NCBI GenBank assembly: GCA_963848295.1
Contig: CAWKDB010000010.1
Span: 1,888,001 to 1,952,000 of the forward strand
From: an uncultured delta proteobacterium
GTDB taxonomy: Bacteria > Myxococcota_A > Polyangia > Haliangiales > Haliangiaceae
Direction: 5' to 3'
Length of the DNA stretch: 64,000 nt
Position numbers and translations under genes: made by a program. This document shows, piece after piece, positions 14,076 through 63,223 of the stretch (its first letter is position 1; every line of letters begins with the position of its first letter). The notes under the pieces are model-generated. The model had not been told where the DNA came from. It worked only from the letters and a program-made list of their open reading frames with translations, and did no database searches.

Positions 14076-14492
14076 GGCGCCCGCGTGGATGAGGACACCC
14101 GCAAGAGCATCGACCACGGACGGCGAATTCGCGCTTGCCTCGAGCAGCCCGAATTCGATCCGGTGTCCGTGCCCGCGCAGATCGCGATCCTGCTCGCGCT
14201 GACCGCGAAGCTCTTCGATCCGGTGCCGCTCGACCAAATGACCGCCGCCGAGCAGGCCGTGCGTGAGGCGGCGGCGGGCATCCCGGCGGAGGTGAGCGCT
14301 GGATTCGAAACGGCCTCAGCCTTGAGCGCCGAGGATCGCAAGTCGATCGTCGAGCTCGCCCGCCGAGCGCTCGCGCCGTTCTATCCGAAGCCTGAGGCCG
14401 CGCCGAAGCTCGAAGTCAAGGCTGGGCCGAAGCTCGAAACCGAGCCGAAGCCGAAGGTCTCGGCGGAGGCGGCACCTGTGGAGAAGTCATGA
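14076..14492 (+). pseudogene. atpA: ATPase alpha subunit, 3' fragment
   Basis: VDEDTRKSIDHGRRIRACLEQPEFDPVSVPAQIAIL is the alpha C-terminal domain; stop overlaps the atpG start. Confidence 0.93.
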
Positions 14493-33335: not shown

Positions 33336-33491
33336 TGTCGCATACCGGTTGTACCAAGCCAGTAACAGCGTGGTTCGCACGCACGCACGAGCTCGAGTCC
33401 GCGTTGGTGAGCTCGAGTTGACCGATCGCGTGATGCAATCTCGCACACCCGATGTCGGGAGCGAGCGGTAGCGACGCGTGCCGTCGTCGAT

Positions 33492-40721: not shown

Positions 40722-40725
<4 letters not shown>
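39355..40725 (+). CDS. actC: ACIII subunit C (NrfD/PsrC family)
   Basis: [37 protein letters not shown]. Confidence 0.95.
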
Positions 40726-41254
<529 letters not shown>

Positions 41255-41258
<4 letters not shown>

Positions 41259-41839
41259 AGGTCATCGTGCTCGTCCTCGCGCTGGTCGCGTGCGACAACC
41301 ACGGCTCCACGCCGGATTGGTCGCGCATGATCACGCAGCCCAAGCTGCTGCCGTTCGGCGCGACCTCGCAATTCGCGGACGGGGCGGCGATGCGCCCGGT
41401 ACCGGCGGGCACGATCACGCGTGACTGGATCGCCGACGGCGCCGTCCGCGATGGTGTCATGGGCTCCGGCGCGCCGGTCGAGGTGATCCCGATCGCGATC
41501 ACCCGGCCCTTGCTCGAGCGCGGCCGCGAGCGCTTCGAGATCGTGTGCGCGGCCTGCCACGGTATCGCCGGCGACGGCGACAGCGCCGTCGCACACAACA
41601 TGCAGCGCCGGCGCCCGCCATCGTTCCACGAGCCGCGCTTGGTCGCGCTCTCGCCGGGCGAGCTCTATCGCACGATCGTCGACGGCTACGGCCTGATGCC
41701 TTCGTACGCGGCAATGATCAGCGTCGACGATCGCTGGGCGGTCATCGCATACGTGCGAACGCTGCAGCGCGCGTGGCAGCTCGACCTGCAAACGCTGCCA
41801 CCGGCCGAGGCGGCCGAGATCGTCGAGAGCTTACCGTGA
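41255..41839 (+). CDS. actE: ACIII monoheme cytochrome c lipoprotein
   Basis: Lipobox LVAC, MITQPK, CAACHG, GYGLMPSY, DRWAVIAYVR. Confidence 0.92.
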
Positions 41840-42987
41840 GCCGTCGCGCGCTGTTGATCGCCTCGCTCGTGCTCGGGACCCTCGGGACGATCGGCATGGC
41901 GATCGGTTTTGTCGTCGAGCCGACGCAGGCCGCGTTCTCGTACCTCACCGCGTGGGTGTACGCGGTGTCGATCGCGCTCGGCGCGCTGATCTTCCTGCTG
42001 ATCGCGCACGCTACGCAGGGCAAGTGGTTCATCGTGTTTCGCCGACTCGCCGAAGCGATCACGAGCAGCCTGCCCGCGCTCGCGATCGGCTTCATCCCGA
42101 TCGCGCTCGTGCTCGGCCGGATCTACGTGTGGGTCGATCCTTCGCCGGCCCTCGGCCACGACGCGCTGCTCACGATCGCGCACAAGGCGCCGTATCTGAA
42201 TCCGACGTTCTTTATCGTTCGCGCCGCGATCTTCTTCACGTTCTGGATCGTCCTCGCCGAGCTGCTGACCCGATGGGCCGCGCGTTCTGATCGCGACCTC
42301 GCGAGCCACCTCTATCGATTGCGTGCGCTGGCATGCGGTGCACTGCCGGCGGTCGCACTGACCCTCACGTTCGCCGCGTTCGACTGGCTGATGTCGATGA
42401 CGCCGCTGTGGTACTCGACCGTGTTCGGCTTGTTGTACTTCTCGGGCGGCTTCGTCGCGGCGCTAGCGGCGCTCGCCGTGATCTCGCGCGACGCCCGCCG
42501 GGTGCCGGACGTCGACTCGAGCATCCACCCGAGTCATACCGGTGCCCTCGGGCGCTTGCTGTTCGCGTTCCTCGTGTTCTGGGCTTACATGGAGTTCGCG
42601 CAGGGCCTGATCATCTGGATCGCGAACAAGCCCGGCGAGGTGCCGTGGTACGTGGTGCGCGGCGCCACCGCGTGGGGCGCGGTGTTCGCGGTGCTGGTCG
42701 TCGGCCACTTCGCGCTGCCGTTCTTCATCCTGCTGTCGAAGCCGCTCAAGCGCAGAGCTACTCCGCTCGCGCTCGTCGGTTGGTGGTTGCTCCTCATGCA
42801 TTACGTCGACATCTACTGGATGGTGATGCCGGTCCTGCATCCGACGTTGGCGTTTCACTGGCTCGACGTGGCGGCGCCGCTCGCCGTCATCGGCTTCGCG
42901 ACGGCATTCGTCGTCGCTCGCAACCGCAACCCGCTCGCGACCGCCGATCCGCGATTCGCGGCCGCCGTGCGCTACGAGGGCTCGTGA
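41836..42987 (+). CDS. actF: ACIII subunit F
   Basis: KAPYLN..FF, FAAFDWLMS..P.WYST, FWAYMEFAQGLIIW..N.P.E. Confidence 0.92.
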   Translation: MSRRALLIASLVLGTLGTIGMAIGFVVEPTQAAFSYLTAWVYAVSIALGALIFLLIAHATQGKWFIVFRRLAEAITSSLPALAIGFIPIALVLGRIYVWVDPSPALGHDALLTIAHKAPYLNPTFFIVRAAIFFTFWIVLAELLTRWAARSDRDLASHLYRLRALACGALPAVALTLTFAAFDWLMSMTPLWYSTVFGLLYFSGGFVAALAALAVISRDARRVPDVDSSIHPSHTGALGRLLFAFLVFWAYMEFAQGLIIWIANKPGEVPWYVVRGATAWGAVFAVLVVGHFALPFFILLSKPLKRRATPLALVGWWLLLMHYVDIYWMVMPVLHPTLAFHWLDVAAPLAVIGFATAFVVARNRNPLATADPRFAAAVRYEGS

Positions 42988-43313
42988 GCGACCAAGAAGC
43001 CGATCAGATCCGGACGCGCGCGATCGTCGTCGTCGGGCTCGCAGGGCTCGCGATCACGCTGGCGCTGGTCGGCGTCGCGTGGCTGTTCGTCGTGGCCCCG
43101 GCCGCGCCTCGGCACACGCCGAGCGCTCCCTCGGTCTTGGAGCACGGGCTGTTCGTCCAGGCCTCGGGCGGCGCCGACGCGAACGCGCGCGGCGCCAAGC
43201 GGCTCGAAGTGTACCGCTGGATCGATCGGGCTCATCACGTCGCACGGATTCCGATCGACCGGGCGATCGATGCGGTGGTCGCGGATCCGGCCCTTATCGG
43301 AGGACATCGCTGA
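42984..43313 (+). CDS. ACIII-associated small membrane protein (ActG-like)
   Basis: One TM helix, YRWIDR...ARIPIDRAI. Confidence 0.7.
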   Translation: MSDQEADQIRTRAIVVVGLAGLAITLALVGVAWLFVVAPAAPRHTPSAPSVLEHGLFVQASGGADANARGAKRLEVYRWIDRAHHVARIPIDRAIDAVVADPALIGGHR

Positions 43314-44131
43314 TGCGCGCTGCACTCGTCATCGCACTCTCGCTCGGTTTCTCCTTGCGCGCGGTCGCCGCCGATCCGCCTCCCGGCTCGCCCGCGTGGG
43401 CCGAGCAAGCCGACGTCACGGAGCACCTCGGCGACCAGCTTCCCCTCGATCTCCGGTTCACAGACAGCACCGGCCATCCGATCGAGCTCCGCCAGCTGTT
43501 CGACGGCGTTCATCCGGTGCTGCTCGTGCTCGCTTACTACGAGTGCCCGCAGCTGTGCAGTCTCGTGCTCGCTGGTGCCGTCTCGGCGATGCGGCAGCTC
43601 GACACGTGGGGCTGGAAGCTCGGACCGCAATATCGCGTCGCCACGATCAGCTTCGATTCTACCGAGCGCATCGATCAAGCGGCGCGCAAGCAGGCGAGCG
43701 TGGTCGGCACGCTCGGCGCCCCGCTCGAGGCATGGCCGTTCTTCGTCGGCAACGAGGCCAACGTGCGCGCGCTCACCGACCATCTCGGCTTCAAGTTCTT
43801 GCGTGATCCGCGCACCGGCAATATCGCGCACGCCGCGGTCGTGTTCGTGTTGACCCCCGACGGCAAGATCTCGCGCTACCTGTACGGCACCGACTACGCG
43901 CCCCGCGATCTCAAGCTCGCGCTGCTCGAGGCCTCCGATGGCAAGACCGGTTCGTTCGGCGACAAGATCCTGCTGCGCTGCTTTCATTACGATCCGACGA
44001 CCCGGCGCTACGGTCTGTTCATCAGCCGATTCATGAAGGTCGGAGGGCTCCTGATCCTCGTAATCGCGCTCGTCATCGGTCGCATTTTTTGGCGCCACGA
44101 GCGGCGGCGCGCGCGGAGGGGCGTGGCGTGA
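43313..44131 (+). CDS. SCO/SenC copper chaperone
   Basis: YYECPQLC (CxxxC), conserved His, LTPDGKISRYLYG. Confidence 0.92.
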   Translation: MRAALVIALSLGFSLRAVAADPPPGSPAWAEQADVTEHLGDQLPLDLRFTDSTGHPIELRQLFDGVHPVLLVLAYYECPQLCSLVLAGAVSAMRQLDTWGWKLGPQYRVATISFDSTERIDQAARKQASVVGTLGAPLEAWPFFVGNEANVRALTDHLGFKFLRDPRTGNIAHAAVVFVLTPDGKISRYLYGTDYAPRDLKLALLEASDGKTGSFGDKILLRCFHYDPTTRRYGLFISRFMKVGGLLILVIALVIGRIFWRHERRRARRGVA

Positions 44132-45183
44132 ACGAGCTGCTCCGTCACGCGTTGAATTTGCCGCCGCAGCGGTCGTCGATCGCGAGCTCGGTCGATCATC
44201 TACATTATGTGGTGATCCTGTGCACGATCGCCGGTGCGATGGTCGCGGGCGGGTTCGGCGCGATGTTCCTGGTGCGCTACCGGCGCCGCACCAAAGCCAT
44301 CCCGCTGACCCCATACGTGGTCGTCCCGCGCTGGCTCGAGGCGCTCGTGATCGCGGGGCTGCTCTCGCTGTTCTGCGGGTTCTGGGTCGTCGGGTTCTCG
44401 CAGTACACCACGATCGAATCCGCGCCTCCCGACGCGCTGCCGATCTACGTCACCGCCAAGCAGTGGATGTGGCAGTTCGCGTATCCCGACGGCCCGACGT
44501 CGGCGAACGTCCTGACCGTGCCGGTCGGCCGGCCGATCAAGCTGATCATGACGTCGCGCGACGTGATCCACAGCTTCTTCGTGCCCGACTTCCGGATCAA
44601 GCAGGACGTCGTGCCGGGACGCACGATGACGACCTGGTTCGAAGCCATCGCGCCGGGCACATCGGACGTATTGTGCTCGCAATACTGCGGCACCCGGCAC
44701 TCGCTGATGCGCGCGCAGGTCGTCGCCCTCCGACCGGCTGACTATGCGCGCTGGCTCGCGACCGCACGAGGTCCGCTCGCGTTGCCGGGCGCCAAGGGCA
44801 ATGGCATCGGGCTCGCCGCCACCGGCAAAGCTGTCGCGGCCGCGCACGGCTGTCTGCGCTGCCACTCGATCGACGGTACGCCGTTCATCGGCCCGACCTG
44901 GGCCAACGCGTTCGGCAGGCAGCGGCCCACCGCGGACGGCCGCTCGGTACTCGTCGACGAAGCCTATTTGACCGAGTCGATGATGGACCCCAAGGCGGTG
45001 ATCGCGGCGGGCTTTCAACCGGTGATGCCGTCGTATCAGGGGCTGCTCTCGCCCGAGGATATCTCCGCGATCATCGAGTACATCCGTTCGCTGCGCGACG
45101 TGCAGCCCGTGGTCGCGGAGCCGCCGCCGGTCGCCCCGATCACCTACCCGCCAGGAGCGCCCCATGACGCCGCCACCGACTGA
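44128..45183 (+). CDS. coxB: Cytochrome c oxidase subunit II with C-terminal cytochrome c (caa3 type)
   Basis: KQWMWQF, DVIHSF, CuA motif CSQYCGTRHSLM, CLRCH. Confidence 0.95.
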   Translation: MNELLRHALNLPPQRSSIASSVDHLHYVVILCTIAGAMVAGGFGAMFLVRYRRRTKAIPLTPYVVVPRWLEALVIAGLLSLFCGFWVVGFSQYTTIESAPPDALPIYVTAKQWMWQFAYPDGPTSANVLTVPVGRPIKLIMTSRDVIHSFFVPDFRIKQDVVPGRTMTTWFEAIAPGTSDVLCSQYCGTRHSLMRAQVVALRPADYARWLATARGPLALPGAKGNGIGLAATGKAVAAAHGCLRCHSIDGTPFIGPTWANAFGRQRPTADGRSVLVDEAYLTESMMDPKAVIAAGFQPVMPSYQGLLSPEDISAIIEYIRSLRDVQPVVAEPPPVAPITYPPGAPHDAATD

Positions 45184-46780
45184 CTACCTGCGCGCGAGAA
45201 GCGGCATCAAGTCGTGGCTGACGACCACCGACCACAAGCGGATCGCGCTGATGTTCTTCGTCGCGGTCACGCTCGCGATGATGCTCGGCGGTGCGTTCGC
45301 GATGGCGTTGCGCACCAAGCTGCTGATTCCGGGCCCGGCCCTGTTCAGCCCGCTCACGTACAACCGGTTGTTCACGCTCCACGGCGTGACGATGGTGTTC
45401 CTGTTCATGATCCCCGCGATCCCGACGGTGTTCGGCAACTTCTTCCTGCCGATGATGGTCGGCGCGAAGGATCTCGCGTTCCCGCGACTCAACCTCGCGA
45501 GCTTCTACGTCTACTTCGCGGGCGCCACCCTGACGCTGTGGGGCATGATCCACGGCGGCGCCGATACCGGCTGGACGTTCTACGCCCCGTATGCGACCGC
45601 GTCGCCGACCGATGTCGCGCCGATCGCGATCGGCGTGTTCGTGCTCGGCGTGTCGTCGATCATGACGGGCCTCAACTTCATCGCCACGACCCACATGCTG
45701 CGTCGTAGCGGGCTCCGGTGGTTCAAGCTGCCGCTCTTCGTGTGGGCGATCTACGCCACGAGCGTGATCCAGGTGCTCGCGACGCCGGTGCTCGGCCTAT
45801 CGGTGATCCTCGTCGCGCTCGATCACGCGCTGCACATGGGAATGTTCGATCCAGCGCTCGGCGGTGATCCGGTGCTGTTCCAGCATCTGTTCTGGTTCTA
45901 TTCGCACCCCGCCGTCTACATCATGATCTTGCCGGCGATGGGCGTGATCGCAGAGATCGTGCCTACGTTCTCGAAGAAGAACCTCCTGTCGTACAACGCA
46001 CTCGCGTATTCATCGCTCGGCATCGCCTTCGTCGGGTTCTTGACGTGGGGCCATCACATGTTCGTCGCCGGGATCTCGCAATTCGACGCCGCGCTCTTCG
46101 GGCTGCTCTCGATGTTCGTCGCGATCTTCTCGGCGATCAAAGTGTTCACGTGGATCGGCACGATGTATCGCGGCTCGATCACGTTCAACACACCGATGCT
46201 GTACTTCTTCTCGTTCGTCTTCTTGTTCGTGTTCGGCGGGATGACCGGCGTCGCGGTCGCGACCACGTCGCTCGACGTCCACTGGCACGACACCTACTTC
46301 GTGGTCGCGCACTTTCACTTCATCATGGTCGGCGGCACGCTGACCGCGTTCCTCGCCGCGATCCACTACTGGTTTCCGAAGATGTTCGGCCGGATGTACC
46401 CCGAGCGCCTCGGCCTGCTCTCCGCATCGCTCGTGTTCGTCGGCTTCAACCTGACGTTCTTCCCTCAGTTCCTGCTCGGCAATGCCGGCATGCCGCGGCG
46501 CTACTACAGCTACCCGGCTCGCTATCACGTCCTGAATGTGTTCTCGACGTGTGGCGCGTATCTACTCGGGCTGGCGATGACGATCACGCTGATCTACTTG
46601 CTCGTGTCGCTCAAGTACGGCAAGCGCGCCCCCGCCAATCCGTGGGGCTCGCGCGGCTTCGAGTGGCGCACGACCTCACCTCCGCCCGTCCACAACTTCG
46701 TGGTGCCGTTCGATCCCGCGTACGGCGCGTACTCGTACAACGAGCCACCTCCGCCAGACCATCCGACGGAATCGGAATGA
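45164..46780 (+). CDS. coxA: Cytochrome c oxidase subunit I (A2 type)
   Basis: [32 protein letters not shown]. Confidence 0.97.
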
Positions 46781-47403
46781 TCGAGCACGAAGTTCAATAC
46801 GATTCGATCGAGCGCCAGCACGCGACTGCGCGCCTCGGGATCTGGATCTTTCTGGGCAGCGAGCTCCTGTTATTCGCCGGTCTGTTCACGCTGTTCGTGG
46901 CGTATCGCTTCCAGTACCCCGCGGAGTTTCGCGCGGCCTCGGCGCACGCCAACGTCCTGATCGGCACGGTCAACACGTACCTGCTCTTGACGTCGAGCCT
47001 CACGGTCGCACTCGCGATCCATGCCGCCCGCCACGGACATCGCGGTCGCATCGTGATGTTCCTCGCAATCACGATCGCGCTCGGGATCGCGTTCGATGTG
47101 TTGAAGGGCATCGAATACGCCGAGCACGTGTCCAAGGGTATCGCGCCCGGTCACTACTACTCGTTCTCCGCGCTTCCCGCCCACGGCGCGGTCTTGTACT
47201 TCACGCTGTACTACCTGCTCACGGGGATCCACGCGATCCATGTCACCGGTGGCCTGATCATGCTCGTCTGGCTGGCGGTCAAAGCAAAGCGCGGCGACTT
47301 CACCCCGAGCTCGCACATCACCCTCGAGCTTGGCGGATTGTATTGGCACCTCGTCGACGTGGTGTGGCTCTTCCTATGGCCTCTGATCTACCTCATCCGA
47401 TGA
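46777..47403 (+). CDS. coxC: Cytochrome c oxidase subunit III
   Basis: GIWIFLGSE, NTYLLLTSS, TGIHAIHV, YWHLVDVVW. Confidence 0.94.
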   Translation: MIEHEVQYDSIERQHATARLGIWIFLGSELLLFAGLFTLFVAYRFQYPAEFRAASAHANVLIGTVNTYLLLTSSLTVALAIHAARHGHRGRIVMFLAITIALGIAFDVLKGIEYAEHVSKGIAPGHYYSFSALPAHGAVLYFTLYYLLTGIHAIHVTGGLIMLVWLAVKAKRGDFTPSSHITLELGGLYWHLVDVVWLFLWPLIYLIR

Positions 47404-47852
47404 CCCAGCCCTCCCAGCCATCCGCGCTGACCTACGTGATCGTGTGGCTTGCACTCGCGTCGCTCGCGACCCTGTCACTGTTGGCATCGTACGCGCACCT
47501 CGGCGATTGGAACGTGGTCTTCGCGTTCGCGATCGCGACGGTCAAGGCGGGGCTCGTATTTGCGGTCTTCATGCATCTCATGCACGGGCCGCCGCTTCAC
47601 CGCATCGTCATCGTCGTTGCGATGTGCTTCGTCGCGCTGATCATTCTTGGCGTGCTCGCGGATGTCGCCACTCGATCGGTCGCCAGTCCGTATGCGCTGG
47701 GATCACGCGATCGACGACCCACGACGGGCGTTCGCCTCGGCGTCCGACGCGCTCAGGACGGACGACCTATCTGCTTCGCGCCCTTCGCGAGCAGGAGCAC
47801 CGGCAGCATGCAGGCAGCGAGGATCGCCATCGTGCGCATCGCGTCGACGTAG
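47400..47852 (+). CDS. coxD: Cytochrome c oxidase subunit IV
   Basis: IATVKAGLVFAVFMHL; three TM helices; the tail overlaps the convergent MFS gene by 100 nt. Confidence 0.85.
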   Translation: MTQPSQPSALTYVIVWLALASLATLSLLASYAHLGDWNVVFAFAIATVKAGLVFAVFMHLMHGPPLHRIVIVVAMCFVALIILGVLADVATRSVASPYALGSRDRRPTTGVRLGVRRAQDGRPICFAPFASRSTGSMQAARIAIVRIAST

Positions 47853-52969: not shown

Positions 52970-54946
52970 ATGAGCGTACCGATCTTACTGGTCACGATGC
53001 CTTGGGGGTCGGTCCGATTCCCGTCGATCCAGCTCGGGACACTCAAGTCGGTACTGCAGCGCGGAGGTCTCGAGGCGCGAGTGCTGTACTTGAATCTCAA
53101 GTTCGCCGAGTTCATCTCCGAACAAGGAGCGAAGGCGGCGAGCACATCGGACGAGGACCGGATCTCGATCAAAGAGCTGCTCCAGCTTGGGGACAACCCG
53201 AGGTTAGGTGACTGGGTCTTTGCGGTCCCGCCGTTCCGCCCAACCAACGATGACGCCGATCGGGACTTCCTCACGCCGCGCGGTGTCCGCGAGCCGGCGG
53301 TCGAAAGGGTCGTCGCGAGCCTCACACGTCTGCGTGCTCTGGCTCCGGCGTTTCTGACTGACTGTCTAGAAGAGATCATCGCGCTGGAACCTCGCGTCAT
53401 CGGGTTTACGACCAGCTTCGGTCAGAACGTCGCGTCGCTCGCATTGGCGCAACTGATCAAAGAACGCTTGCCTGCGACGAGGATCGTGTTCGGTGGGGCG
53501 AACTGCGATGGGCCGATGGGCGTGGCGCTCCACCACAGCTTCCCGTGGGTCGATGTCGTCGTGCGCGGCGAAGCGGAGCGCGTGGTGGTTCCGTTGTTCG
53601 AAGATCTGCTGGCGGGCCGTCCGGTGCGAGATCTGCCCGGCATGTGTCGGCGCGATGAGGGCGTGAGCATCGTCACGCCACAGAGCCACGATCTGGTCAG
53701 CATGGCCGAAGTTCCCGCGCCCGACTACGAGGAGTACTTCGAGGCGCTCGCGGCGAGTCCGCTCCGACACGATCTGCTGAGCGACGTGCGCATCCTCTAC
53801 GAGAGCGCGCGCGGATGTTGGTGGGGCGAGAAGAACCACTGCACGTTCTGCGGGCTCAACGGCTCGTCGATGAAGTTCCGCAGCAAGAGTGCCGACCAGA
53901 CGTATCGAGAGATGGTCGAGCTCGGCCGCCGGCACACAAACCTCCATTTTCAGGTGGTCGACAACATCATCGAGCTGCGCTACCTGGAGGAGCTCCTGCC
54001 TCGGCTACGCGATACCGAGTGGGATTGGAATGTGTTTTACGAAACCAAGGCCAACCTCAAGCGCGATCAGCTGCGCCTGTTTCGCGAAGCGGGAGTTCGC
54101 GACATTCAACCCGGCATCGAGAGCCTGAGCACTCCGATTCTCAGGTTGATGAACAAGGGCGTTACCGCGCTCCAGAACATTCGGCTGTTGAAATGGTGCG
54201 CCGAGCTCGGGATCCACATCGAGTGGAACCTCATCTTTGGCTTCCCCGGGGAAGATCCCGCGGAATACGAAGCGATGGCCGCGCTGATCCCGTCGTTGGT
54301 TCACTTGACTGCGCCCACAGTGACGCCGCTCAACGTCGAACGGTTCAGCCCGTATCACGAGCACCCCGAGCGCTACGGTATCGAGATCCTCGGCGCGGCG
54401 AGACACTACGCGCTCCTCTACCCGCTCCCCGCGGTGCAACTCGCCGAGCTCGCATACGCCTTCGAGTTCCGCTATCTCGATGGCCGCGATCCCCACGCGT
54501 ATGCCGATCCGCTGGTGAGCCAAGTCAACGCGTGGCGGGAAGCGGCCGCGGACGGAACCTTGGCGTACGATGTCGGGCCCGGTTTCGTGGTCATCGATGA
54601 CCATCGCCCGACGGTGGAGTCGGCGCGCTACACGTTTCACGAGCGCGAAGCGCTGATCTATCTGGCGTGCGACGCCGGTGCGACGCCGGCGCAGGTGCAC
54701 GACCTCCTCACGAAGCGCGGCGAACACGAGCTCACGCCAGGAGACATCGCAGAGTTCCTCGACAGCTTGGTCGAGCTCCGTCTGGTCTACCGCGAGCGCG
54801 GCAAGTACCTCTCCCTCGCGACCGCGCGTGACCAGCACCGGGCGCTCAGGCGACTCGGCATCACCGACCTCGACGACGAGCACGATCGCGACGAAGCTGC
54901 AGCGGCAGCTGGTTTGATCCAGCTCAAGCGCGCTGCGAGCCAGTAG
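52970..54946 (+). CDS. B12-dependent radical SAM RiPP C-methyltransferase (rSAM_ocin_1/TIGR03975-like)
   Basis: LVTMPW...PSIQLGTLK; cobalamin domain GFTTSFGQN...FGGANC...GEAE; ESARGCWWGEKNHCTFCGLN (CX7CX2C); VDNI, YETKANL, QPGIESLS; C-terminal wHTH/RRE-like region. Confidence 0.92.
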   Translation: MSVPILLVTMPWGSVRFPSIQLGTLKSVLQRGGLEARVLYLNLKFAEFISEQGAKAASTSDEDRISIKELLQLGDNPRLGDWVFAVPPFRPTNDDADRDFLTPRGVREPAVERVVASLTRLRALAPAFLTDCLEEIIALEPRVIGFTTSFGQNVASLALAQLIKERLPATRIVFGGANCDGPMGVALHHSFPWVDVVVRGEAERVVVPLFEDLLAGRPVRDLPGMCRRDEGVSIVTPQSHDLVSMAEVPAPDYEEYFEALAASPLRHDLLSDVRILYESARGCWWGEKNHCTFCGLNGSSMKFRSKSADQTYREMVELGRRHTNLHFQVVDNIIELRYLEELLPRLRDTEWDWNVFYETKANLKRDQLRLFREAGVRDIQPGIESLSTPILRLMNKGVTALQNIRLLKWCAELGIHIEWNLIFGFPGEDPAEYEAMAALIPSLVHLTAPTVTPLNVERFSPYHEHPERYGIEILGAARHYALLYPLPAVQLAELAYAFEFRYLDGRDPHAYADPLVSQVNAWREAAADGTLAYDVGPGFVVIDDHRPTVESARYTFHEREALIYLACDAGATPAQVHDLLTKRGEHELTPGDIAEFLDSLVELRLVYRERGKYLSLATARDQHRALRRLGITDLDDEHDRDEAAAAAGLIQLKRAASQ

Positions 54947-54988
54947 CGCTTTCCCGCGAGGGTCGAACGGCTCGCGGATCAGTCGTGT

Positions 54989-57900
54989 TTGGGACTCGTG
55001 CGATCGACGTGCGCTATGCCCGGGCGGCGTCCACGGATTCCGTACCGGTGCGCCGTTCGGGTATCGTTGGTCGTGGGCAGCGATACGCGAACCGGATCGG
55101 GTGTTCCGACCGGCGTGCCGGCGAGCTTCGCATCGAGTGCGACCCCCGGTCAGTTGACCGGTCGGGAGCTCGGCGGCTTCACGTTGCGCGAAGTGATCGG
55201 CGCGGGCGGCTACGGCGACGTGTATCTCGCCGTGCAGGAGGCGTTGCATCGCGACGCGATCGTGAAGGTGCTGCGCCAAGAGGCGATGGACGAGATGCGA
55301 GTGCAGCGGTTCCTGCGCGAAGCGCGGCTCGCCTCGCGACTCGACCATCCGTATGCGGCGCACATCTATGCGTTTGGCGCTGAAGACGACGGCGTGTTCT
55401 GGATCGCGATGGAGCACGTGCGCGGGGCGTCACTCCGTGCCGTCCTCGAAGCGCAAGGCCCGATGGTCCTCGAGAGATTCGTGCCGCTGCTCGAACGGAT
55501 CTGCGAGGTCGTCCAGACCGCACACGAGCAAGGGATCATTCACCGCGACCTCAAGCCAGACAACATCATGGTGATCTCGCGGGCGGGGAAGCTCATGCCC
55601 AAGCTGCTCGATTTCGGGATCGCGCGGGCGCTGGGCGAGGAGGCGACGTTGCCGAATGAAGCGGCGAGCGCGGAGGACCTTGCGCGTCCCGTCGAAAAGA
55701 CGACGCAGCGCGGATCCGTGTTGGGATCGCCCCCGTACATGGCGCCGGAGGTGTGGAGGGATGCGCACGGCGTCGGACCTGGCGCGGACCAGTACGCACT
55801 CGGCGCGCTCGCCTACGAGGCCCTGAGTGGCCGGATCGCGTTCGATGGCAGGACCGTGATGGAGGTCGCGCGCGCGCACGCCAAGGGTGTGGTCGCGCCG
55901 CTCGGCGACGGATTTCCTGTCGAGCTCGATAGCGTGATCAGTCGTTCGCTCGCTCGTTCGCCTGCGAATCGGTATGGGAACATGCTCGAGCTTGCTCAGG
56001 CGTTCCGCGACGCCGCCGGGGTCAACGCCGCAGCGGTCGACATCCCCGAGCTCGACCAAGAGCTGCGGGCGCTGTACCTGGCGCGGGCGCCGCAGCCACT
56101 TGCGGACGCGGTCGCAGGCTACGACGCAGCGAAAAATGCGCACCAGGCTCGCGAGTCGTTGCGCGCACTGGTCCGGACCTCCGCGACCTATGTGGGAATC
56201 GTCGCGCTTGCCTGCCGGACACGCGTTGGCAGCGGAGGAGTGGTCGATTCGGAGCATACGCAAACGCTCCTGCGCGAGCTCCGCCGCGACGGACTGACAT
56301 CGAGTGGATGGATCGGGCTCGCCCGCCAGCTGACCGAGCCGTTCGCGCGTCTTCCCGACACGCATCCGATGCCGGAGCTGGTGACCCTGCTGCAGCGCGC
56401 ACGTGGAGTCGATCCGTTCGCCTCGGTGGTCGAGGGCTCGCTGTCGGAGTCGCTGGTCGATCCGTCGCAGGAAGCGGCGAGCCAAGCGATCGCGCGCGAG
56501 CTCCCCAGCGTGATCGGCCTGCTCCGTGCACTCGCGTTCGTCCTCGACTACCAGCTCGTCGTCGCACGCGATGGCTATGCGGAGTCCTGGGCCGGCGCGC
56601 GCGGTGCAGGCGCCCGCCGGCGCGTCCTGCTCGGCCGAGTGGTCTCGCAGGACCATCCAGTGCTCGTGGACAGCGACGGGCACCCACTCGTCTCGCTGTG
56701 GCCGCTGATGCAGCTGAGCATGGCGGTGCCCGGACGTACGGAAGAGCTCTTCATGTTGGCGGGACCGGGCCGACGCGGTGCCCGGCTCGTTTCGAGCCCC
56801 CACGGGTTCGAGCACAGCGATGATGGGCTGTGGGATTGGTTCCGCGAGCAGCTGTTCCGCGCCGAGGATCCGGAGGCGAACGCGACGGCCGTGGAGTCGC
56901 CATACCGCGGGCTGGCGGCATACCGCGCGAGCGACGCGGCGTGGTTCTTCGGTCGCGAGCGCGAGGTCGAGGTCGTGATCAATCGTCTCAAGGTCGAGGC
57001 GTTCGTCGCGGTGGTGGGACCGTCGGGTGTCGGCAAGAGCTCGTTCGTCCACGCCGGCGTCGCGTCTGCCCTGGCGGGCTTTCGAGTGGTGACGACCCGG
57101 CCCCAGCATGCGCCCCTCGAGCAACTCGGAGCAGCGCTCGGCATCCCCAACTTACGCGAGGCGGCGACCGCCGATGTCACCACGGCCGCAGCGCAAATCC
57201 GCGCGCTGGCAACCGAGTCGAACGGCCTGCTCGTCGTGATCGATCAGTTCGAGGAGACGCTCACTCTCGGTAGCTCGCCGGAAGAGCGCGATCTGTTTGC
57301 ACGGGTCCTGCTCGCCGCGACTCGCACGCCAGACCATCCGGTCCGCGTCGTGATCACGTTGCGCGACGACTTCTTAATACGCGCGGAACAGCTGCCCGGC
57401 TTCGACCAGGCGCTCGCCAGAGGACTCCAGCTCCTCGGACCACTGGGCGCGGCCGCACTCGAGCGTGTCGTCGTCGAGCCGGCACGTCGCGCGGGCTTCG
57501 AGTTCGAGGATGCGAACCTGCCGGCGAGGATGGTCGAGGCTGTCGCAGGTACTCCTGCCGCCGTTGCGCTGATCTCGTTCACCGCCACGCGACTGTGGGA
57601 GTTGCGCGATCGTCACTTCCATCAACTGCCAAGGAAAGCCTACGAGGCGATCGGGGGCGTGGCCGGTGCCCTCGCGCTGCACGCCGACGAAACGGTCGAA
57701 GCGATGCCTGCGGGCGAGCGTGCGCTGGTGCGCAAAGCCTTCCGCCATCTGGTGACGTTCGAAGGTACCCGCGCCGTGCTCGGCCGCGATGAGTTGATGC
57801 AGCTGCTCGGCGGCCGGGGGGACGCGGAGAAAGCGCTCGAGGGACTGATCGAGGCCCGGCTCTTGGTGTCGTCGGAGAACGAGGAAGGCGAGGCAGCGGT

Positions 57901-60418
57901 CGAGATCATTCACGAGACGCTGCTCACGGCGTGGCCGCGGCTGGCCGAGTGGCGACGAGAAGATAGCGAAGGCTCGCGGTTCCACGAACAGCTGCGCGCC
58001 GCCGCCAAGCAATGGCACGATCGCGGCCGCCCGCGCGGGGCACTGTGGCGCGGGGACGCCCTCGCCGAATACGAGCTGTGGCGCAAGCGCCACCCCGATA
58101 ACCTCACACCGGTCGAGGCCGCGTTCGGCGGGGCGAGCGTCGCGAGTGAAGCACGGGGGCGCCGGCTCCGTAGGTTGTCGGCAGCGATCGCTCTGGTCAT
58201 CGCCGCGGTGTTCGTCGCGTTCCTCTGGCGCGCAAACCGGATCGAGCATCGGATGCTGCGCGAAGCGACCTTCGATCAGGGCCGGATGATGATGCTCAAC
58301 GGCGATAGCCGCGCCGCGCTGCCCTATCTGCAGCATGCGTACGAACAAGGCGAGACCGGCCCGGCGAATCGCTTGCTGATCGAGGAGGCTCTTCGATCGG
58401 GACGCGCACGCATCGCGACCTTTGCCGGGCACACCGGCCGACTGCGGGCGGTTGCGTTCAGTCCCGATGGTACGGAGGTCGGGACGGCGAGCGACGACGG
58501 TACCGCCCGGGTCTGGAACAGCAAGACCGGGGCCCTGATCGATACGATCGCTCTGTCGGGCGTCGTCCGAGCGCTCGCGTTCAGTCCCGATGGCAAGATC
58601 GTCGCCTGCGGAGGCGACGAAGCAGCAGTCCACCTTTGGGACCTCGAGCAACACCGCGAGCTCGCCCCGCTCGCGGGAGCCGGGCCGGCGGTTCTCCAAC
58701 TGTCGTTCAGCGGCGACGGCCATCTCATCCTGGTCGTCGGCGCCGGCCGAATCAAGACGATGTCGCTAATCGGAGGCGCGGTCGTCGATTTCGGCCCAGT
58801 GGAGGGTTTTGCCGGCGCGGTCTTTGCGAACCACGACGCGACCATCGCGGGCTGGGATTCTGCCGGACACGTCGGGCTGTGGGACACGCGCTCGCGGCAG
58901 CCGATCGCTAGCCACGTTGCCGCGGTCGGTGATGGTGTAGGCGCCGCCGCCCCCGACGGATCCTTCGTTGCAGTGGCGACAAAGACCGGGCAGCTCGACG
59001 TGCTCCGTGCCGACGGAACCATCACCGCGATCACCGCGCACGATCAGACCATCATCTCGGTGGCGGTTTCGCCTTCAGGTTCGCTCGTAGCAACCGGCAG
59101 CGCGGATGGCACCGCCAAGACCTGGGACCTCGCGGGCCGGCCAGCTCGCGTCTTCGGTTGGGGAGGTGGTCCCGCGATCAACGTCGTGCGATTCTCACCG
59201 AACGGCGAATTGCTGTTGACGGCCTGCGCAGACGGCTCCGCGCGGCTCTGGCAGGTGCGGAGCGGGCTTTTGCTCGGCGAGCTGTCCGGCCATTCCACCG
59301 CGATCTTTGCCGCGGCGTTTTCTACGACAGGCGATCGTATCGTCACCGGCTCGCTCGATTCGCGCGCGATCGCGTGGGATGTCGCGAAGGCCCGCGAGTT
59401 TGTGTCGCTCCCGATCGGAGGGGTCACCTCGATCGCGTTTGTTTCACAGACGGCGTTCAGCCGAGATGGGCGGTTCGTCGCCGTGGCAACCGCCGATCGA
59501 TCGCTCGCGGTCCTACGGTCGGTGGACGGAGCCCTCGTGTGCAGCCACGCGTTCGACAAGCCGATCGATCAGATCGCGTGGGGGCCAGATGGCGCGACCA
59601 TCGTGACGGTGTTCGACTCGGACCTGATCATTCCCGTCTGGGATGCGCGCACTTGTACGGTCGTGCATCAGTTGAGACATCCTCGGCCCGCCTCGTGTGT
59701 CGCGTTTGCTCCGAACGGGGAGATCGTCAGCGGCTCCGATGACGGCATCCTCCGGCGCTGGGACATCGCCGGCGAACGCGTAGTGGCGAGTTACCCTCCC
59801 CTTCCCGGTCGAATCGACCTCGTCGGCTTCGATCCCGCCGAAGCGCAGATCTGGGCGACAACATCGAGCGAAACAGGCGGTGCCCTCACCCTCTTGGATC
59901 CCGCTCACCCGGTCAACCGACGGGTGCTCGCGGCGTCGAATCAATCGCTCTCCGCGGTAACGTTCGATCCAGCACACCATCGCATCCTCGCGTCGGCGCT
60001 CGATCAGCGCGTGTGGATCTGGGATGATCGCAGCGGGGCGTTGATCACCAAGCTCGACGCGAGCGGGGTTCTGGCGGGACTAGAGATGAGCCCGGATGGA
60101 CGTTTCCTCGTGGGCATCGGCGGGACCTCGCCCACGGTCTGGGATCCGGACACGCTGGCCGAGCTAGGCACTCTCGACGGTCACACCGATGTCGTCGGCC
60201 AGGGTGGCTTCCTACCGGGCGATCTGCTCGTGACCGCAAGCCGCGACGGTAGCGTCCGGGTCTGGGACCTAGCGACCCGGCGCTCGCTCTTGATACTGCA
60301 CGGCGCAGACGAGATGGCGCTCAGCCCCCAAGGTGCCGTGATCCTTGCCGACGGAGCAGGCGTGCGGGAGTGGTTTCCGAGCATGCCCACACCGGAGCTC
60401 GGTACGATGATGAAGTGA
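54989..60418 (+). CDS. Ser/Thr kinase - STAND (nSTAND1-like) NTPase - TM - WD40 repeat protein (start uncertain, maybe about 55115)
   Basis: GAGGYG, HRDLKPDN, DFG, YMAPE; PYRGL...FFGRE, GPSGVGKSS, IDQFEE; TM helix; many GH...WD repeats. Confidence 0.92.
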   Translation: MGLVRSTCAMPGRRPRIPYRCAVRVSLVVGSDTRTGSGVPTGVPASFASSATPGQLTGRELGGFTLREVIGAGGYGDVYLAVQEALHRDAIVKVLRQEAMDEMRVQRFLREARLASRLDHPYAAHIYAFGAEDDGVFWIAMEHVRGASLRAVLEAQGPMVLERFVPLLERICEVVQTAHEQGIIHRDLKPDNIMVISRAGKLMPKLLDFGIARALGEEATLPNEAASAEDLARPVEKTTQRGSVLGSPPYMAPEVWRDAHGVGPGADQYALGALAYEALSGRIAFDGRTVMEVARAHAKGVVAPLGDGFPVELDSVISRSLARSPANRYGNMLELAQAFRDAAGVNAAAVDIPELDQELRALYLARAPQPLADAVAGYDAAKNAHQARESLRALVRTSATYVGIVALACRTRVGSGGVVDSEHTQTLLRELRRDGLTSSGWIGLARQLTEPFARLPDTHPMPELVTLLQRARGVDPFASVVEGSLSESLVDPSQEAASQAIARELPSVIGLLRALAFVLDYQLVVARDGYAESWAGARGAGARRRVLLGRVVSQDHPVLVDSDGHPLVSLWPLMQLSMAVPGRTEELFMLAGPGRRGARLVSSPHGFEHSDDGLWDWFREQLFRAEDPEANATAVESPYRGLAAYRASDAAWFFGREREVEVVINRLKVEAFVAVVGPSGVGKSSFVHAGVASALAGFRVVTTRPQHAPLEQLGAALGIPNLREAATADVTTAAAQIRALATESNGLLVVIDQFEETLTLGSSPEERDLFARVLLAATRTPDHPVRVVITLRDDFLIRAEQLPGFDQALARGLQLLGPLGAAALERVVVEPARRAGFEFEDANLPARMVEAVAGTPAAVALISFTATRLWELRDRHFHQLPRKAYEAIGGVAGALALHADETVEAMPAGERALVRKAFRHLVTFEGTRAVLGRDELMQLLGGRGDAEKALEGLIEARLLVSSENEEGEAAVEIIHETLLTAWPRLAEWRREDSEGSRFHEQLRAAAKQWHDRGRPRGALWRGDALAEYELWRKRHPDNLTPVEAAFGGASVASEARGRRLRRLSAAIALVIAAVFVAFLWRANRIEHRMLREATFDQGRMMMLNGDSRAALPYLQHAYEQGETGPANRLLIEEALRSGRARIATFAGHTGRLRAVAFSPDGTEVGTASDDGTARVWNSKTGALIDTIALSGVVRALAFSPDGKIVACGGDEAAVHLWDLEQHRELAPLAGAGPAVLQLSFSGDGHLILVVGAGRIKTMSLIGGAVVDFGPVEGFAGAVFANHDATIAGWDSAGHVGLWDTRSRQPIASHVAAVGDGVGAAAPDGSFVAVATKTGQLDVLRADGTITAITAHDQTIISVAVSPSGSLVATGSADGTAKTWDLAGRPARVFGWGGGPAINVVRFSPNGELLLTACADGSARLWQVRSGLLLGELSGHSTAIFAAAFSTTGDRIVTGSLDSRAIAWDVAKAREFVSLPIGGVTSIAFVSQTAFSRDGRFVAVATADRSLAVLRSVDGALVCSHAFDKPIDQIAWGPDGATIVTVFDSDLIIPVWDARTCTVVHQLRHPRPASCVAFAPNGEIVSGSDDGILRRWDIAGERVVASYPPLPGRIDLVGFDPAEAQIWATTSSETGGALTLLDPAHPVNRRVLAASNQSLSAVTFDPAHHRILASALDQRVWIWDDRSGALITKLDASGVLAGLEMSPDGRFLVGIGGTSPTVWDPDTLAELGTLDGHTDVVGQGGFLPGDLLVTASRDGSVRVWDLATRRSLLILHGADEMALSPQGAVILADGAGVREWFPSMPTPELGTMMK

Positions 60419-60463
60419 ATCATCCCCCGATCTCATACATGTATAATATCATTACGTTTTCCA

Positions 60464-60492
60464 TTGAGATCGACACCGCGTCCGGGTACTTT
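60464..60492 (+). promoter_or_regulatory. sigma70-like promoter of the precursor peptide
   Basis: TTGAGA-N17-TACTTT ending 7 nt before ATG 60500, in an AT-rich gap; an alternative TATAAT at 60442-60447. Confidence 0.5.
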
Positions 60493-60499
60493 GGTAACC

Positions 60500-60640
60500 A
60501 TGAACAAGACCAAGAAGCCCACCAAGAAACAGGCGAAGCTTCAGGTTCTAAAAGTCGCGGTTCGGAGCCTCAGCGTGAAAGAGCTCAAGGACGCGGTGGG
60601 CGGAATCGCCGTCCACAATGCTGGGTGCGCGTTCACCTAG
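60500..60640 (+). CDS. Putative RiPP precursor peptide (46 aa, double-glycine leader)
   Basis: MNKTKKPTKKQAKLQVLKVAVRSLSVKELKDAVGG-IAVHNAGCAFT*; below the ORF-track size cut-off. Confidence 0.85.
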   Translation: MNKTKKPTKKQAKLQVLKVAVRSLSVKELKDAVGGIAVHNAGCAFT

Positions 60641-61758
60641 CCGAGTCGTCGGAACGAGAAGGCGGCCCAGCGGAACGTCCCCATCCAGGCGCGCGCGTTG
60701 CTTTTTGCGAAGCGCCTCTCCAGAGCGCGCCACATGCGCGCCGGATCCTCCCAGCCGGGTGAGGCCGCCGCTTTCAAGTGTTCCTGAGAAAGGAACGCTT
60801 TCGCGAACGGGATGCCGATCGACCGGCGCTCGTCGAGCTCGCAGCTCGCGAGATGTCGGACCGGGCACCCGAGCGCCGTCAGCCGCGTCTCGAGAGAGCG
60901 CGCGTGAGCCGCGGCGTCGAGACGCCCGCGCGTATTCAGCAACCGCGCCAGCGGATGTCGCCTCGGCACCGTGAGCCATCCGTCGATGATGACGAGATAG
61001 CCGCCCTGCTCGAGGACGGAGTAGATCCCTCGTGCCGCGCGCCCCGGGTCGAGCCAGTGGAGGGCGAGCGAGATCGTGACGACGTCGTAGTGCTCGGTGT
61101 GAAATGGCAGCCGGTTGCAGTTGTCATGCAGATAACGCACGCGCACACCACGCTGTGCCGCGTCCCCCGCAGCGATCCTCAGGAATGGCTCGGAGACGTC
61201 CATCCCCGTAACGTGAGACGAGATCTCTGCTAGCTGATTTGCCAAGGCTCCAGTTCCGGTCGCGAGATCGAGGACTCGCGTTGGTTTTCGGATCCTGGCC
61301 GCGCGAGCAACCCAACGCGCGATCGCGGGCGGAATCGTCCGGTGCTCGCGATAGTCGTCGGCCATGTCCGCCCCGTACATCGCGCGAGCATCGCCGACTC
61401 GAACGAGGATCTGGTGGCGCTCGAGCCCGCTCACCAGCTGATATGCGATCCGCTGGTGCTCGGCCGTGCGCGCGAGCCCGTTGACGCGAAGAAATGCAGC
61501 GATCGCCTCGCGGACAGATGTCCCGGTTCCGCTGAAGCAGCCGAGCAGCACGCGATGGGGTTCGGTCAGATTCACCGCGCGGTTGTACGGATGCGTGAGC
61601 GACGTGACGTATGGCTTGCCGTCGAAGTCGACTTCGAGCGCGAAGTGCGGCGATGGTTTGAGTACATCGTCGAACGCGGCATCTTTGCCCATTGAAGCGA
61701 TCCTACGTGACCCCGCGGACTTGATCGACGGCTCGGCGTGAACGTGGGGCTTCCTCAT
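60637..61758 (-). CDS. Class I SAM-dependent methyltransferase with RRE/wHTH-like N-terminal domain (start 61758 or 61692)
   Basis: VLDLATGTG, GMDVSEPFL, YDVVTISLALHW; N-terminal beta-strand plus helix module ending LVSGLERHQILV. Confidence 0.85.
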   Translation of the reverse strand: MRKPHVHAEPSIKSAGSRRIASMGKDAAFDDVLKPSPHFALEVDFDGKPYVTSLTHPYNRAVNLTEPHRVLLGCFSGTGTSVREAIAAFLRVNGLARTAEHQRIAYQLVSGLERHQILVRVGDARAMYGADMADDYREHRTIPPAIARWVARAARIRKPTRVLDLATGTGALANQLAEISSHVTGMDVSEPFLRIAAGDAAQRGVRVRYLHDNCNRLPFHTEHYDVVTISLALHWLDPGRAARGIYSVLEQGGYLVIIDGWLTVPRRHPLARLLNTRGRLDAAAHARSLETRLTALGCPVRHLASCELDERRSIGIPFAKAFLSQEHLKAAASPGWEDPARMWRALERRFAKSNARAWMGTFRWAAFSFRRLG

Positions 61759-61777
61759 CGCGTACCATGGTCGGGCT

Positions 61778-63223
61778 GTGACCCATAGTGCGAAACGTAG
61801 ACTCGCAGGCAAACGCGATCTGATCGTGATCGGCGCCGGGCCAGTGGGCTTGGCGGCACTCTGGTACGCGCATCGTTACAGCATCGACGCGATCGCGCTC
61901 GACGCCGGGCAAGCATCACTAGATTCGATTCGCTCGTTCGGCCCTGGGCTTGTCACGGTCTCGACCGCGCATGAATGGGAGATCGATGGGCTCCCGGTCG
62001 ATTGCCGCGCCCCGACCGAAGTCACGCGCGAGGACCTCCTGAGCTACTACTCTCGGATCGGCGCCTACGGCCGACTCGAGGTCGCATGTCGACAGCGCGT
62101 TACGGCGCTCACTGCGCGCCCCGACGCGGTGAGGGTCGAGGTCGAAACGCAAGACGGGCCAGCGTATTGGCTTGCACGCCGAGTGATCGTGACGCCATGG
62201 TTCCGTCGGCGCCGAGTCGCACTCGAGGGGCCCGGTGTGAGCGTCGTCGAGGCCGCGACCGACGCGATATCCGCCAGTGAGCGCGTGGTCGTGATCGGGG
62301 CTGGAATGTCGGGGCTCGAGACGTGCGATCATCTGCTCAGACGTGGCGTACGCGTCACGTTGCTCGACAAGCGCCGACAGGTGTTGCCTCCCGAGCTCCA
62401 GACTCTGTTCAAGGTATCGGGCTCTCGCTACGTCGATAACGTCGGATCGATCGCTGTTGCGAAATCCGGTGTGCTTGCGGTCTCGCAAAAGGGTCTGGCG
62501 ATCCAGGTTCCGTGCACGGTCGCGGTGAATTGCACGGGGCTGGAGGTCAATCGCGATCTGCTTCGAGCTCTTTTCGGCGCCGAGCTAATGTCTGAAACGG
62601 AGGCGCGCGCACTCGAACGCTTTCGGCCGCACCGATCGAGCTATCGCACGGACCCCCGAGCCATCGCGGCGCAGTTGCCGGCGTTGTCCGACGCGATCTG
62701 GCGCGGACGACGTGGCGTGCACTTCGCCGGGACCGTATTTCACGTCGGCGGTCCGCTCGGCGCAGGTATCAAGTGGTCGATCGAGACTGCTCGATGGGCG
62801 CTGGACGCGATCGCCGGGAAGTCGAAGGTCACCGTGGACCCCTCGATCCACCTGCCGACGTGGTTTCTCACCCTCGCCAATACGTCGCCTCTCGTGCATC
62901 GTGGACTCCGCTGGTCGAAGCACTTGGGGGCGATCGTGCCGACCCCGATTCCGACCTGGTCTCGGGGCACGAAGTTGTTCGAGGGTGAGACGCCGACGGG
63001 TGGGACGCTTGGAGCGCCGTCGCACGACACGCGTGCCCATGGCGTCGCCCGCCGCAGGGTGTTGACCGATCTCCGCGACGCTTGCTACTCGGGCCGATCG
63101 GTCGCCGCGCTCGTTGCAACTCTCGGTATCGATCGCGAAGTGATCCTCAGCGCGTTGGGCGCGTTGTGGACCGGAAATGGCCTGACGTGGGTACCGCCCG
63201 GAGCGACGCGACCGCGCGGTTGA
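61778..63223 (+). CDS. FAD/NAD(P)H-dependent oxidoreductase (YpdA/TrxB-like) with C-terminal wHTH-like extension
   Basis: VIGAGPVG and VIGAGMSG Rossmann motifs; STAHEWEIDGLP...TREDLLSYY resembles the YpdA N-terminus. Confidence 0.8.
   Translation: MTHSAKRRLAGKRDLIVIGAGPVGLAALWYAHRYSIDAIALDAGQASLDSIRSFGPGLVTVSTAHEWEIDGLPVDCRAPTEVTREDLLSYYSRIGAYGRLEVACRQRVTALTARPDAVRVEVETQDGPAYWLARRVIVTPWFRRRRVALEGPGVSVVEAATDAISASERVVVIGAGMSGLETCDHLLRRGVRVTLLDKRRQVLPPELQTLFKVSGSRYVDNVGSIAVAKSGVLAVSQKGLAIQVPCTVAVNCTGLEVNRDLLRALFGAELMSETEARALERFRPHRSSYRTDPRAIAAQLPALSDAIWRGRRGVHFAGTVFHVGGPLGAGIKWSIETARWALDAIAGKSKVTVDPSIHLPTWFLTLANTSPLVHRGLRWSKHLGAIVPTPIPTWSRGTKLFEGETPTGGTLGAPSHDTRAHGVARRRVLTDLRDACYSGRSVAALVATLGIDREVILSALGALWTGNGLTWVPPGATRPRG

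Follow-up and report, generated by a model that had tools for sequence, protein, structure and literature searches.

The enzyme trio beside a double-glycine peptide gene in an uncultured delta proteobacterium as a probable variant of a recurring cassette of peptide and predicted receptor kinase

The stretch of DNA analysed here (the window) comprises 64,000 nucleotides (nt) of contig CAWKDB010000010.1 from an uncultured delta proteobacterium, the genome of which is 7.8 Mb long with a completeness of 85%. Its relatives bear the name Kofleriaceae, the myxobacterial family to which the host most likely belongs. The subject is a locus at positions 52970 to 63223, where genes for a cobalamin-dependent (B12) radical S-adenosylmethionine (SAM) enzyme, a giant kinase, a short peptide, a methyltransferase and a flavoenzyme lie side by side. 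An earlier reading based on the letters alone (the sequence-only reading) had presented four of these genes as a candidate cluster for a new class of peptides that are synthesized by ribosomes and post-translationally modified (RiPPs). All four lie where it placed them: an rSAM_ocin_1-type cobalamin radical SAM gene, a 46-residue double-glycine peptide gene, a convergent SAM methyltransferase gene with an overlapping stop, and a divergent two-Rossmann flavoprotein gene. What it omitted is the 5.4 kb gene between the first two, and it is this giant kinase gene that organises the locus. The features are as follows.

52970..54946, + strand: cobalamin-dependent radical SAM C-methyltransferase (TIGR03975), 658 amino acids (aa), with Cx7Cx2C and a C-terminal helical, winged-helix-like extension
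55016..60418 (start 55016 or 55073), + strand: giant predicted receptor kinase, about 1,780–1,800 aa, between the radical SAM and peptide genes
Residues 56–291 of the kinase (numbered from 55016): Ser/Thr kinase domain, HRDLKP/DFG
Residues 340–620 (window 56036–56875): unannotated "mid" domain, about 280 aa, with no Pfam match
Residues 629–1007: nSTAND1 with Walker A, E 1e-98
From about residue 1054: transmembrane helix between nSTAND1 and WD40, Arg-flanked (the arginines precede it)
C-terminal, after the transmembrane helix: WD40 region, about 750 aa, predicted outside the cytoplasm
60441..60455, no strand assigned: AT-rich GTA..ATTAC box, candidate regulator site 5' of the peptide gene
60500..60640, + strand: precursor peptide, 46 aa, with a 35-aa leader (Lys-rich, LxLxK-type, GG at its end) and the core IAVHNAGCAFT
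60637..61692, − strand: class I SAM methyltransferase, 351 aa, with an N-terminal extension of about 105 aa
61778..63223, + strand: flavoprotein of an unnamed family, with a YpdA/TrxR-like fold without CxxC and a C-terminal winged-helix-like domain

The cleavage frame GG|IAVHNAGCAFT leaves a core of 11 residues. The stops of the methyltransferase and peptide genes overlap in CTAG (60637–60640). Two DNA sequencing runs, one of which is possibly the source sample, hold short, near-identical contig pieces that cover parts of the locus. None of these spans the whole, and one crosses the peptide/methyltransferase junction with zero differences. No RNA run was listed as containing the locus.

The giant protein has the architecture of a STAND NTPase joined to a repeat sensor and an effector domain, here nSTAND1, WD40 and kinase. 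The mid domain has 57 homologues, most of which are annotated as kinase, nSTAND1 and WD40. All of the 78 proteins compared have a hydrophobic segment where it is expected, after nSTAND1 and before WD40, and the WD40 region is therefore predicted to be periplasmic. A single query of viral contigs found no mid-domain kinase. Four of the seven giant kinases of the source genome (L016, L017, L019 and L020) look frameshifted, which may be assembly error or decay.

The mid domain also defines the set of related loci. Of 147 genomes in the order, 82 contain a match to its profile, as do 79 of 137 in the family (both tallies include one unpublished genome, G010, which supplied none of the fetched loci). 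Eighty loci were fetched among the 150 listed of 198 mid-domain matches, long open frames being preferred. They were divided, before any peptide was counted, into 64 high-scoring loci from 36 genomes and a low-scoring sister group of 16 (E above about 1e-41). Peptides were sought with two hidden Markov models (HMMs) of the leader: the first was trained solely on the 11 peptides of the source genome, and the refined one, whose training set includes these 11, is partly circular. The names of neighbouring enzymes come from Pfam scans that covered 70 selected genes (neighbours and cluster representatives) among several hundred neighbour genes. All counts over loci are taken as descriptive, because related genomes are not independent and some contribute more than one locus.

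In the source genome, a GG-leader peptide adjoins every mid-domain kinase. Thirteen nSTAND1 loci are present, seven of them with the mid domain, and a peptide was found at all seven (one falls outside the search pattern and was found by reading the sequence). By the refined HMM, none of the six nSTAND1 proteins without the mid domain has a leader peptide of its own. Ten paralogous peptides share the leader of the window peptide, for which reason its short reading frame is more than a chance one. Its score against NF038153 is a weak 11 bits (cut-off 22); the paralogues at L020 and L022 pass that cut-off. At 12 bits or more, the refined HMM gave 11 matches among 143,032 small open reading frames, all of them the 11 peptides of the training set. 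Each pair in this genome has a different core and different neighbours, such as a second TIGR03975 radical SAM enzyme (L016), JmjC and metallo-beta-lactamase folds (L017), a TehB-like methyltransferase (L018), LanC-like proteins (L019 and L020) or an FHA-sigma54 activator (L021).

The pairing extends to the relatives. Using the HMM made from the source genome only, peptides were found at 45, 40 and 32 of the 64 loci (at least 10, 12 and 15 bits), as against 1, 0 and 0 of the 16 sister-group loci. The refined HMM found them at 44 of 64 and 1 of 16, and in 36 of these 44 the peptide starts no more than 450 nt from the kinase stop. The cores vary without a shared motif, and some are only 10–12 residues long. 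The sister kinases (L101–L115) are mostly single-copy, lack a match to HRD[LI]KP, have no peptide and are usually followed by an FHA-sigma54 gene.

The enzymes beside the pair are exchanged from locus to locus. At 32 of the 64 loci, but at none of the 16 in the sister group, genes for RiPP enzymes or exporters are present: LanC-like proteins (18 plus 5), C39 exporters (15), LanB (9), LanD-like proteins (3), MNIO (2) and a B12 radical SAM enzyme (1), with JmjC proteins and methyltransferases also among those exchanged. At other loci, the swapped enzymes occupy the slot right after the peptide. The sequence-only reading had founded its new RiPP class on the three enzymes of the window. In the comparison of neighbourhoods, neither the methyltransferase nor the flavoenzyme was found at any of the 64 related loci, and the recurring unit is therefore the kinase and the peptide with changing enzymes. 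The idea that the three enzymes are a conserved set that defines a class was accordingly rejected, and the claim of a new class is not supported. What the evidence supports is that the trio forms an accessory variant of a cassette of peptide and predicted receptor kinase that recurs, in which the methyltransferase and flavoenzyme are rare accessories whose action on the peptide is plausible.

The same earlier reading was right that the window holds neither LanB nor LanC, but the genome carries one LanB, one C39 exporter and four LanC-like genes elsewhere. The LanB and the single C39 exporter (PF03412) lie together with HlyD-like partners on another contig (L032 9180–19373, G000:C2 at about 785–795 kb). 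No precursor or LanC was detected within 30 kb of them, which suggests action in trans; this region probably serves scattered peptides as a common trans-acting hub.

Three further arrangements were seen among the related loci. LanD-like flavoproteins (PF02441) with an N-terminal extension stand directly after Cys-ending peptides, together with LanC-like genes, at L064 (6853–7722), L066 (5449–6285) and L069, and these are possible aminovinyl-cysteine variants of the module. A family of about 500 aa without a Pfam match fills the peptide slot after the kinase at L075, L078, L088, L093 and L095, with export genes following in four of the five; this may be an enzyme of a new kind or a precursor of larger size. 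At L080 and L087, an MNIO (PF05114) and its partner, a LanB and an exporter lie beside the giant kinase, with a Cys/Gly-rich candidate precursor of about 100 aa.

The enzyme of the window with the clearest assignment is the radical SAM protein. It scores 625.3 bits against TIGR03975 (cut-off 281.85) over its full length, so that the earlier naming is borne out by the family model. It further matches PF04055 (E 3e-16) and, under that family's cut-off, PF02310 (E 1e-5), and its Cx7Cx2C motif lies at residues 283–294. TIGR03975 passes its cut-off in 17 of the 147 genomes. Twenty regions that cover most of the 39 listed matches were fetched, and only one of them, L129, holds a leader peptide. The four peptide-adjacent enzymes (window, L016, L044 and L129) form one clade in a 34-row tree (UFBoot/SH-aLRT 100/99), which left out two partial proteins and four unfetched matches. 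This peptide-adjacent clade supports the reading of the window enzyme as a RiPP enzyme that would modify the neighbouring peptide, and to that extent the earlier proposal that the enzymes act on the core IAVHNAGCAFT gains support; for the methyltransferase and the flavoenzyme it is plausible.

The available part of a published account describes enzymes of the type of PoyB/PoyC (polytheonamide) and BmbB/F/J (bottromycin), members of TIGR03975 like the window enzyme, as methylating carbons of Val, Ile, Pro or Phe, and reports the same Cx7Cx2C motif for PoyC (PMC11285071). Cys was rejected as the target, as two of the four cores paired with a radical SAM enzyme have none. All four contain Val, and Val3 is the best guess for the window core because Val is one of the residues that PoyC and the enzymes of bottromycin methylate. 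His stands next to Val in three of the four paired cores and in five of 60 other cores, a post hoc comparison with core boundaries set by a pattern, of which a few are wrong. The systems of PoyB and PoyC, B12-dependent RiPP C-methyltransferases, use a nitrile-hydratase-like leader. In contrast, the window has a short LxLxK-type GG leader and an 11-residue core, no epimerase or YcaO is in the locus, and a receptor kinase gene lies directly downstream of the radical SAM gene on the same strand. As for other members of the enzyme family, clusters of three to five TIGR03975-like genes each were seen at L134, L141, L142 and L127–L128 without a peptide of the window leader family, and these are separate multi-methyltransferase clusters. 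At L125 (2084–13521), the site of the nearest relative outside the clade, a C39 exporter and genes for sugar modification are found next to it, and no precursor was detected.

The flavoenzyme belongs to a family without a name. Its AlphaFold model (predicted local distance difference test, pLDDT, 92) shows a two-Rossmann fold of the TrxR type. YpdA (7a76 and 7a7b) is the best match both by sequence profile and by fold, with the top Foldseek hits (E 9e-20, TM-score 0.75 on the target, 17% identity). The protein scores only 63 bits against the YpdA family TIGR04018 (cut-off 339.9), and the best E-value among 48 family members is 4e-30. The term YpdA-like, used by the sequence-only reading, thus holds for the fold but not for the family. 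Unlike YpdA/Bdr, moreover, the family conserves an extra C-terminal domain of about 110 aa, which is spanned by most of its 55 clusters (E no higher than 1e-30). A feature shared with YpdA is the rarity of CxxC, which only three of the 48 members have; three single Cys are conserved, in 42, 42 and 31 of the 48. YpdA and thioredoxin reductase were both rejected as identities. Members with names are assigned to Corallococcus (WP_043321513.1 and WP_375758994.1), to a genome of Gemmatimonadota and to one of Deltaproteobacteria. Among 61 relatives, 147 genomes of the order and 401 of the phylum, the family was found in the source genome only (3–10 candidates were scored per genome in part), a Myxococcaceae marker gave no match above cut-off in 251 genomes of the phylum sample, and no member was found in scans of genome, metagenome, viral contigs and plasmids.

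Listed contig sizes likely tie the family to the giant kinase. In a sister strain, relatives of the flavoenzyme, the methyltransferase and the kinase (78–92% identity) all list a contig of 541,393 nt. Two more of the 30 flavoenzyme clusters checked share an exact contig size with a mid-domain kinase (21,893 and 16,679 nt), and two such further agreements arose in 0.06% of jitter trials. Judged by these sizes, the flavoenzyme family likely shares small contigs with the mid-domain kinase in two other assemblies.

Whether the two accessory enzymes could be guided by the leader was considered through their extra domains. The N-terminal extension of the methyltransferase resembles a RiPP recognition element (RRE) as a lead only, its nearest Atlas clusters being MftB/PqqD with scores of 0.79–0.81. 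A sequence search of the PDB with this N-terminus found no match, and two full-length relatives were found by the region. To the eye, the C-terminal helices of the flavoenzyme look like the helical part of an RRE; a single-sequence model of this part is unusable (pLDDT 46). Pfam gave no match to an RRE in either enzyme. Profile comparison found no similarity between methyltransferase and flavoenzyme, and hhalign gave 5% probability for the C-termini of the radical SAM enzyme and the flavoenzyme.

The upstream patterns of the peptide genes would be compatible with regulated expression. A sigma-54-like GG-N9-TGC within 70 nt was found at 35 of 64 peptide genes and at 45 of 746 others, with a pattern that was relaxed after the sequences had been viewed; a stricter first pattern gave 11 of 64 against 10 of 743. 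The GTA..ATTAC box occurs at 8 of 64 peptide genes and 7 of 745 other genes, and was likewise picked after viewing. No sigma-70 promoter was found at 60300–61900. FHA-sigma54 genes are present at 30 of the 64 loci.

The domain order, the transmembrane segment, the pairing, the exchange of enzymes and the radical SAM clade are shown at the level of sequence; modification, export, binding and signalling are predicted. The reading that we prefer, at about even confidence, is that of a swappable cassette in which a self-made, modified peptide serves as the signal and is sensed by the kinase. The leader would recruit the three enzymes. The B12 enzyme would place a C-methyl group on an unactivated carbon, most likely at Val3, and the methyltransferase and the flavoenzyme would act on a heteroatom; S-methylation and redox chemistry at the single Cys8 are a guess that is more probably wrong than right. 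The single C39-peptidase ABC exporter of the genome and its HlyD partners might then, in trans, cut at GG and export the core. The mature product would bind the outer WD40 domain, upon which the STAND domain would switch and the kinase would phosphorylate an FHA-sigma54 activator that drives the peptide genes.

Peptide pheromones and lantibiotics with autoinduction circuits are familiar from ComC/ComAB/ComDE and BlpC/BlpH/BlpR, which have GG peptides, and from nisin with NisK/NisR. By analogy, the cassette has a GG-leader peptide, a C39 peptidase-ABC exporter (in the genome rather than at the locus, and at 15 of the 64 related loci) and an adjacent membrane kinase, and a similar logic of making and sensing is predicted. 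It differs from the ComCDE type in that the receptor is a Ser/Thr kinase-STAND-WD40 protein instead of a histidine kinase with a response regulator, and the likely output is FHA-sigma54. Furthermore, the host is Gram-negative, there are up to 10 matches per genome and the modifying enzymes are interchangeable. The leader type and the GG site resemble those of class I lanthipeptides of Bacteroidetes, for which the available part of the source gives LxLxKx5L...GG leaders and a C39 peptidase (NF038153; 10.1101/2020.03.13.990614), and many sister loci carry LanB/LanC. Unlike them, the window copy is without LanB/LanC and its only Thr comes after its only Cys, and the same leader is used with enzymes other than those of lanthipeptides.

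Several findings weigh against the cassette reading. Thirteen of the 64 loci have neither a peptide nor a RiPP gene, and four of the 11 peptides of the source genome lie apart from a mid-domain kinase, beside other kinases or LanC-like genes or alone. The pair of radical SAM enzyme and peptide at L129 has no giant kinase within the 20 kb fetched. At the window peptide gene, the sigma-54-like site is missing, though common at sister peptide genes, and no FHA-sigma54 gene is in the window. FHA-sigma54 genes also follow 13 of the 16 peptide-less kinases, and this output is therefore not specific to peptides. There is no sign of a sensor that diversifies together with its peptide: the outer domain changes more quickly than nSTAND1 does, and to the same degree in the peptide and the peptide-less group; at 70–80% nSTAND identity, its likeness is 39% and 40%, respectively. 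On the side of the accessories, both are missing from the 64 loci, and the flavoenzyme was not found in the 146 other genomes of the order. In its model, the C-terminus has three helices with no clear three-stranded RRE sheet, and PqqD is not one of the Pfam families given for the 48 members, of which 25 of 32 were listed.

The main alternative, which we consider rather unlikely, is that these are ordinary RiPP clusters for weapons or other effectors. The giant kinase would then be their dedicated regulator, would respond to an external cue (prey or competitors, for example) and not to its own peptide, and would turn on the peptide gene. An outer domain without peptide-linked excess divergence is consistent with this, as are the many loci with complete lanthipeptide-type kits and exporters, and regulated expression of that kind agrees with the sigma-54-like sites and the FHA-sigma54 genes. 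However, short cores of 10–12 residues without a motif, and seven separate pairs in one genome, suggest to us a receptor for each peptide and not a regulator for each cue.

A second alternative concerns only the accessory enzymes and is compatible with the other readings: the methyltransferase and the flavoenzyme would be a separate divergent gene pair beside the cassette with a small-molecule substrate, and the radical SAM enzyme alone would modify the peptide. Their absence from all 64 related loci and the weak RRE calls speak for it. Moreover, their transcription units are separate, and their codon fit is the lowest (0.07 and 0.01, genome median 0.25). We nevertheless regard it as unlikely, in view of the position right after the peptide, where swapped RiPP enzymes sit elsewhere, the extra domains of both proteins, which plain relatives lack, and the contig sizes that likely tie the flavoenzyme family to the kinase twice more.

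It is distinctly improbable that the locus is a conflict system resembling NLRs, in which the STAND protein would sense an invader or contact with non-kin and the modified peptide would be a released alarm or effector. The idea has a precedent, since it was in predicted counter-invader systems, with their kinase and FHA domains, that nSTAND1 was defined, as far as the available parts of the sources go (PMC8195603; 10.1101/2023.09.22.558884), and such systems are from multicellular bacteria (Kaur et al. 2021, PMC8195603). The kinase family is, in addition, patchy in its occurrence and present in multiple copies, and codon use is atypical in the genes of both accessory enzymes. Yet the available part of that paper (PMC8195603) does not contain the term RiPP, and no RiPP link is made in the available part of either source, whereas the partner in the window is a leader peptide and the repeat domain follows a transmembrane helix, which places it outside the cytoplasm by prediction. 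The scan of 70 neighbours brought out no conspicuous effector of the nuclease, TIR or protease type. The weakest alternative, that the giant kinase is itself biosynthetic and phosphorylates Ser/Thr of the core, as class III/IV lanthipeptide synthetases do, for LanC-like proteins to finish, is very improbable despite Ser or Thr in 58 of 62 cores and 23 LanC-like against nine LanB cluster matches, as the L016 and L018 cores have neither residue, no lyase domain was detected, a membrane anchor and a large outer domain are predicted, and a LanB without a local precursor is available to act in trans.

Elsewhere in the window, an F/N-type ATP synthase operon (6292–15382), so labelled from the look of the translations, has an alpha-subunit gene seemingly split by a transposase-like gene (11804–13981). 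Positions 35811–47849 hold what we take to be an operon resembling alternative complex III with cytochrome oxidase genes, and the genes upstream of it (32193–34656) are presumably transposase-like.

The module is widespread and apparently undescribed. No description of the kinase-peptide module or of a RiPP enzyme with the YpdA fold was found in the literature, of which subscription journals were thinly covered, so that a prior description is possible. What the window locus adds is the peptide-tied clade of B12 radical SAM enzymes and the unnamed flavoenzyme family. As a small kit of a 46-aa precursor and three enzymes, it also brings in a flavoenzyme family with a member in cultured Corallococcus species. 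The mid domain is a useful bait for RiPP clusters that enzyme-centred mining would scatter over classes, because one leader family serves lanthipeptide, MNIO, LanD-like, JmjC and B12 radical SAM enzymes.

In its fullest form, which we offer tentatively and think somewhat unlikely, the reading of a self-made signal sensed by the kinase extends to a combinatorial chemical language in the Kofleriaceae. Each NLR-like transmembrane Ser/Thr kinase would read one self-made RiPP, the identity of which would be set by a hypervariable core and swappable enzymes. The window copy would then combine a B12 enzyme that forms tert-leucine, a methyltransferase guided by the leader and a flavoenzyme that would be the first of the YpdA fold to act on a ribosomal peptide. 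Such pairs of a RiPP ligand and a STAND receptor might serve quorum or kin sensing in Gram-negative bacteria, with a logic like that of the peptide-hormone receptor kinases of plants. If sensing of the self-made peptide by the kinase is true, this would connect the STAND (NLR-like) proteins of bacteria, which until now have been discussed as sensors of invaders, with self-made modified peptides. The Ser/Thr kinases of myxobacteria, which to our knowledge have been without defined ligands so far, would then gain candidate ligands.

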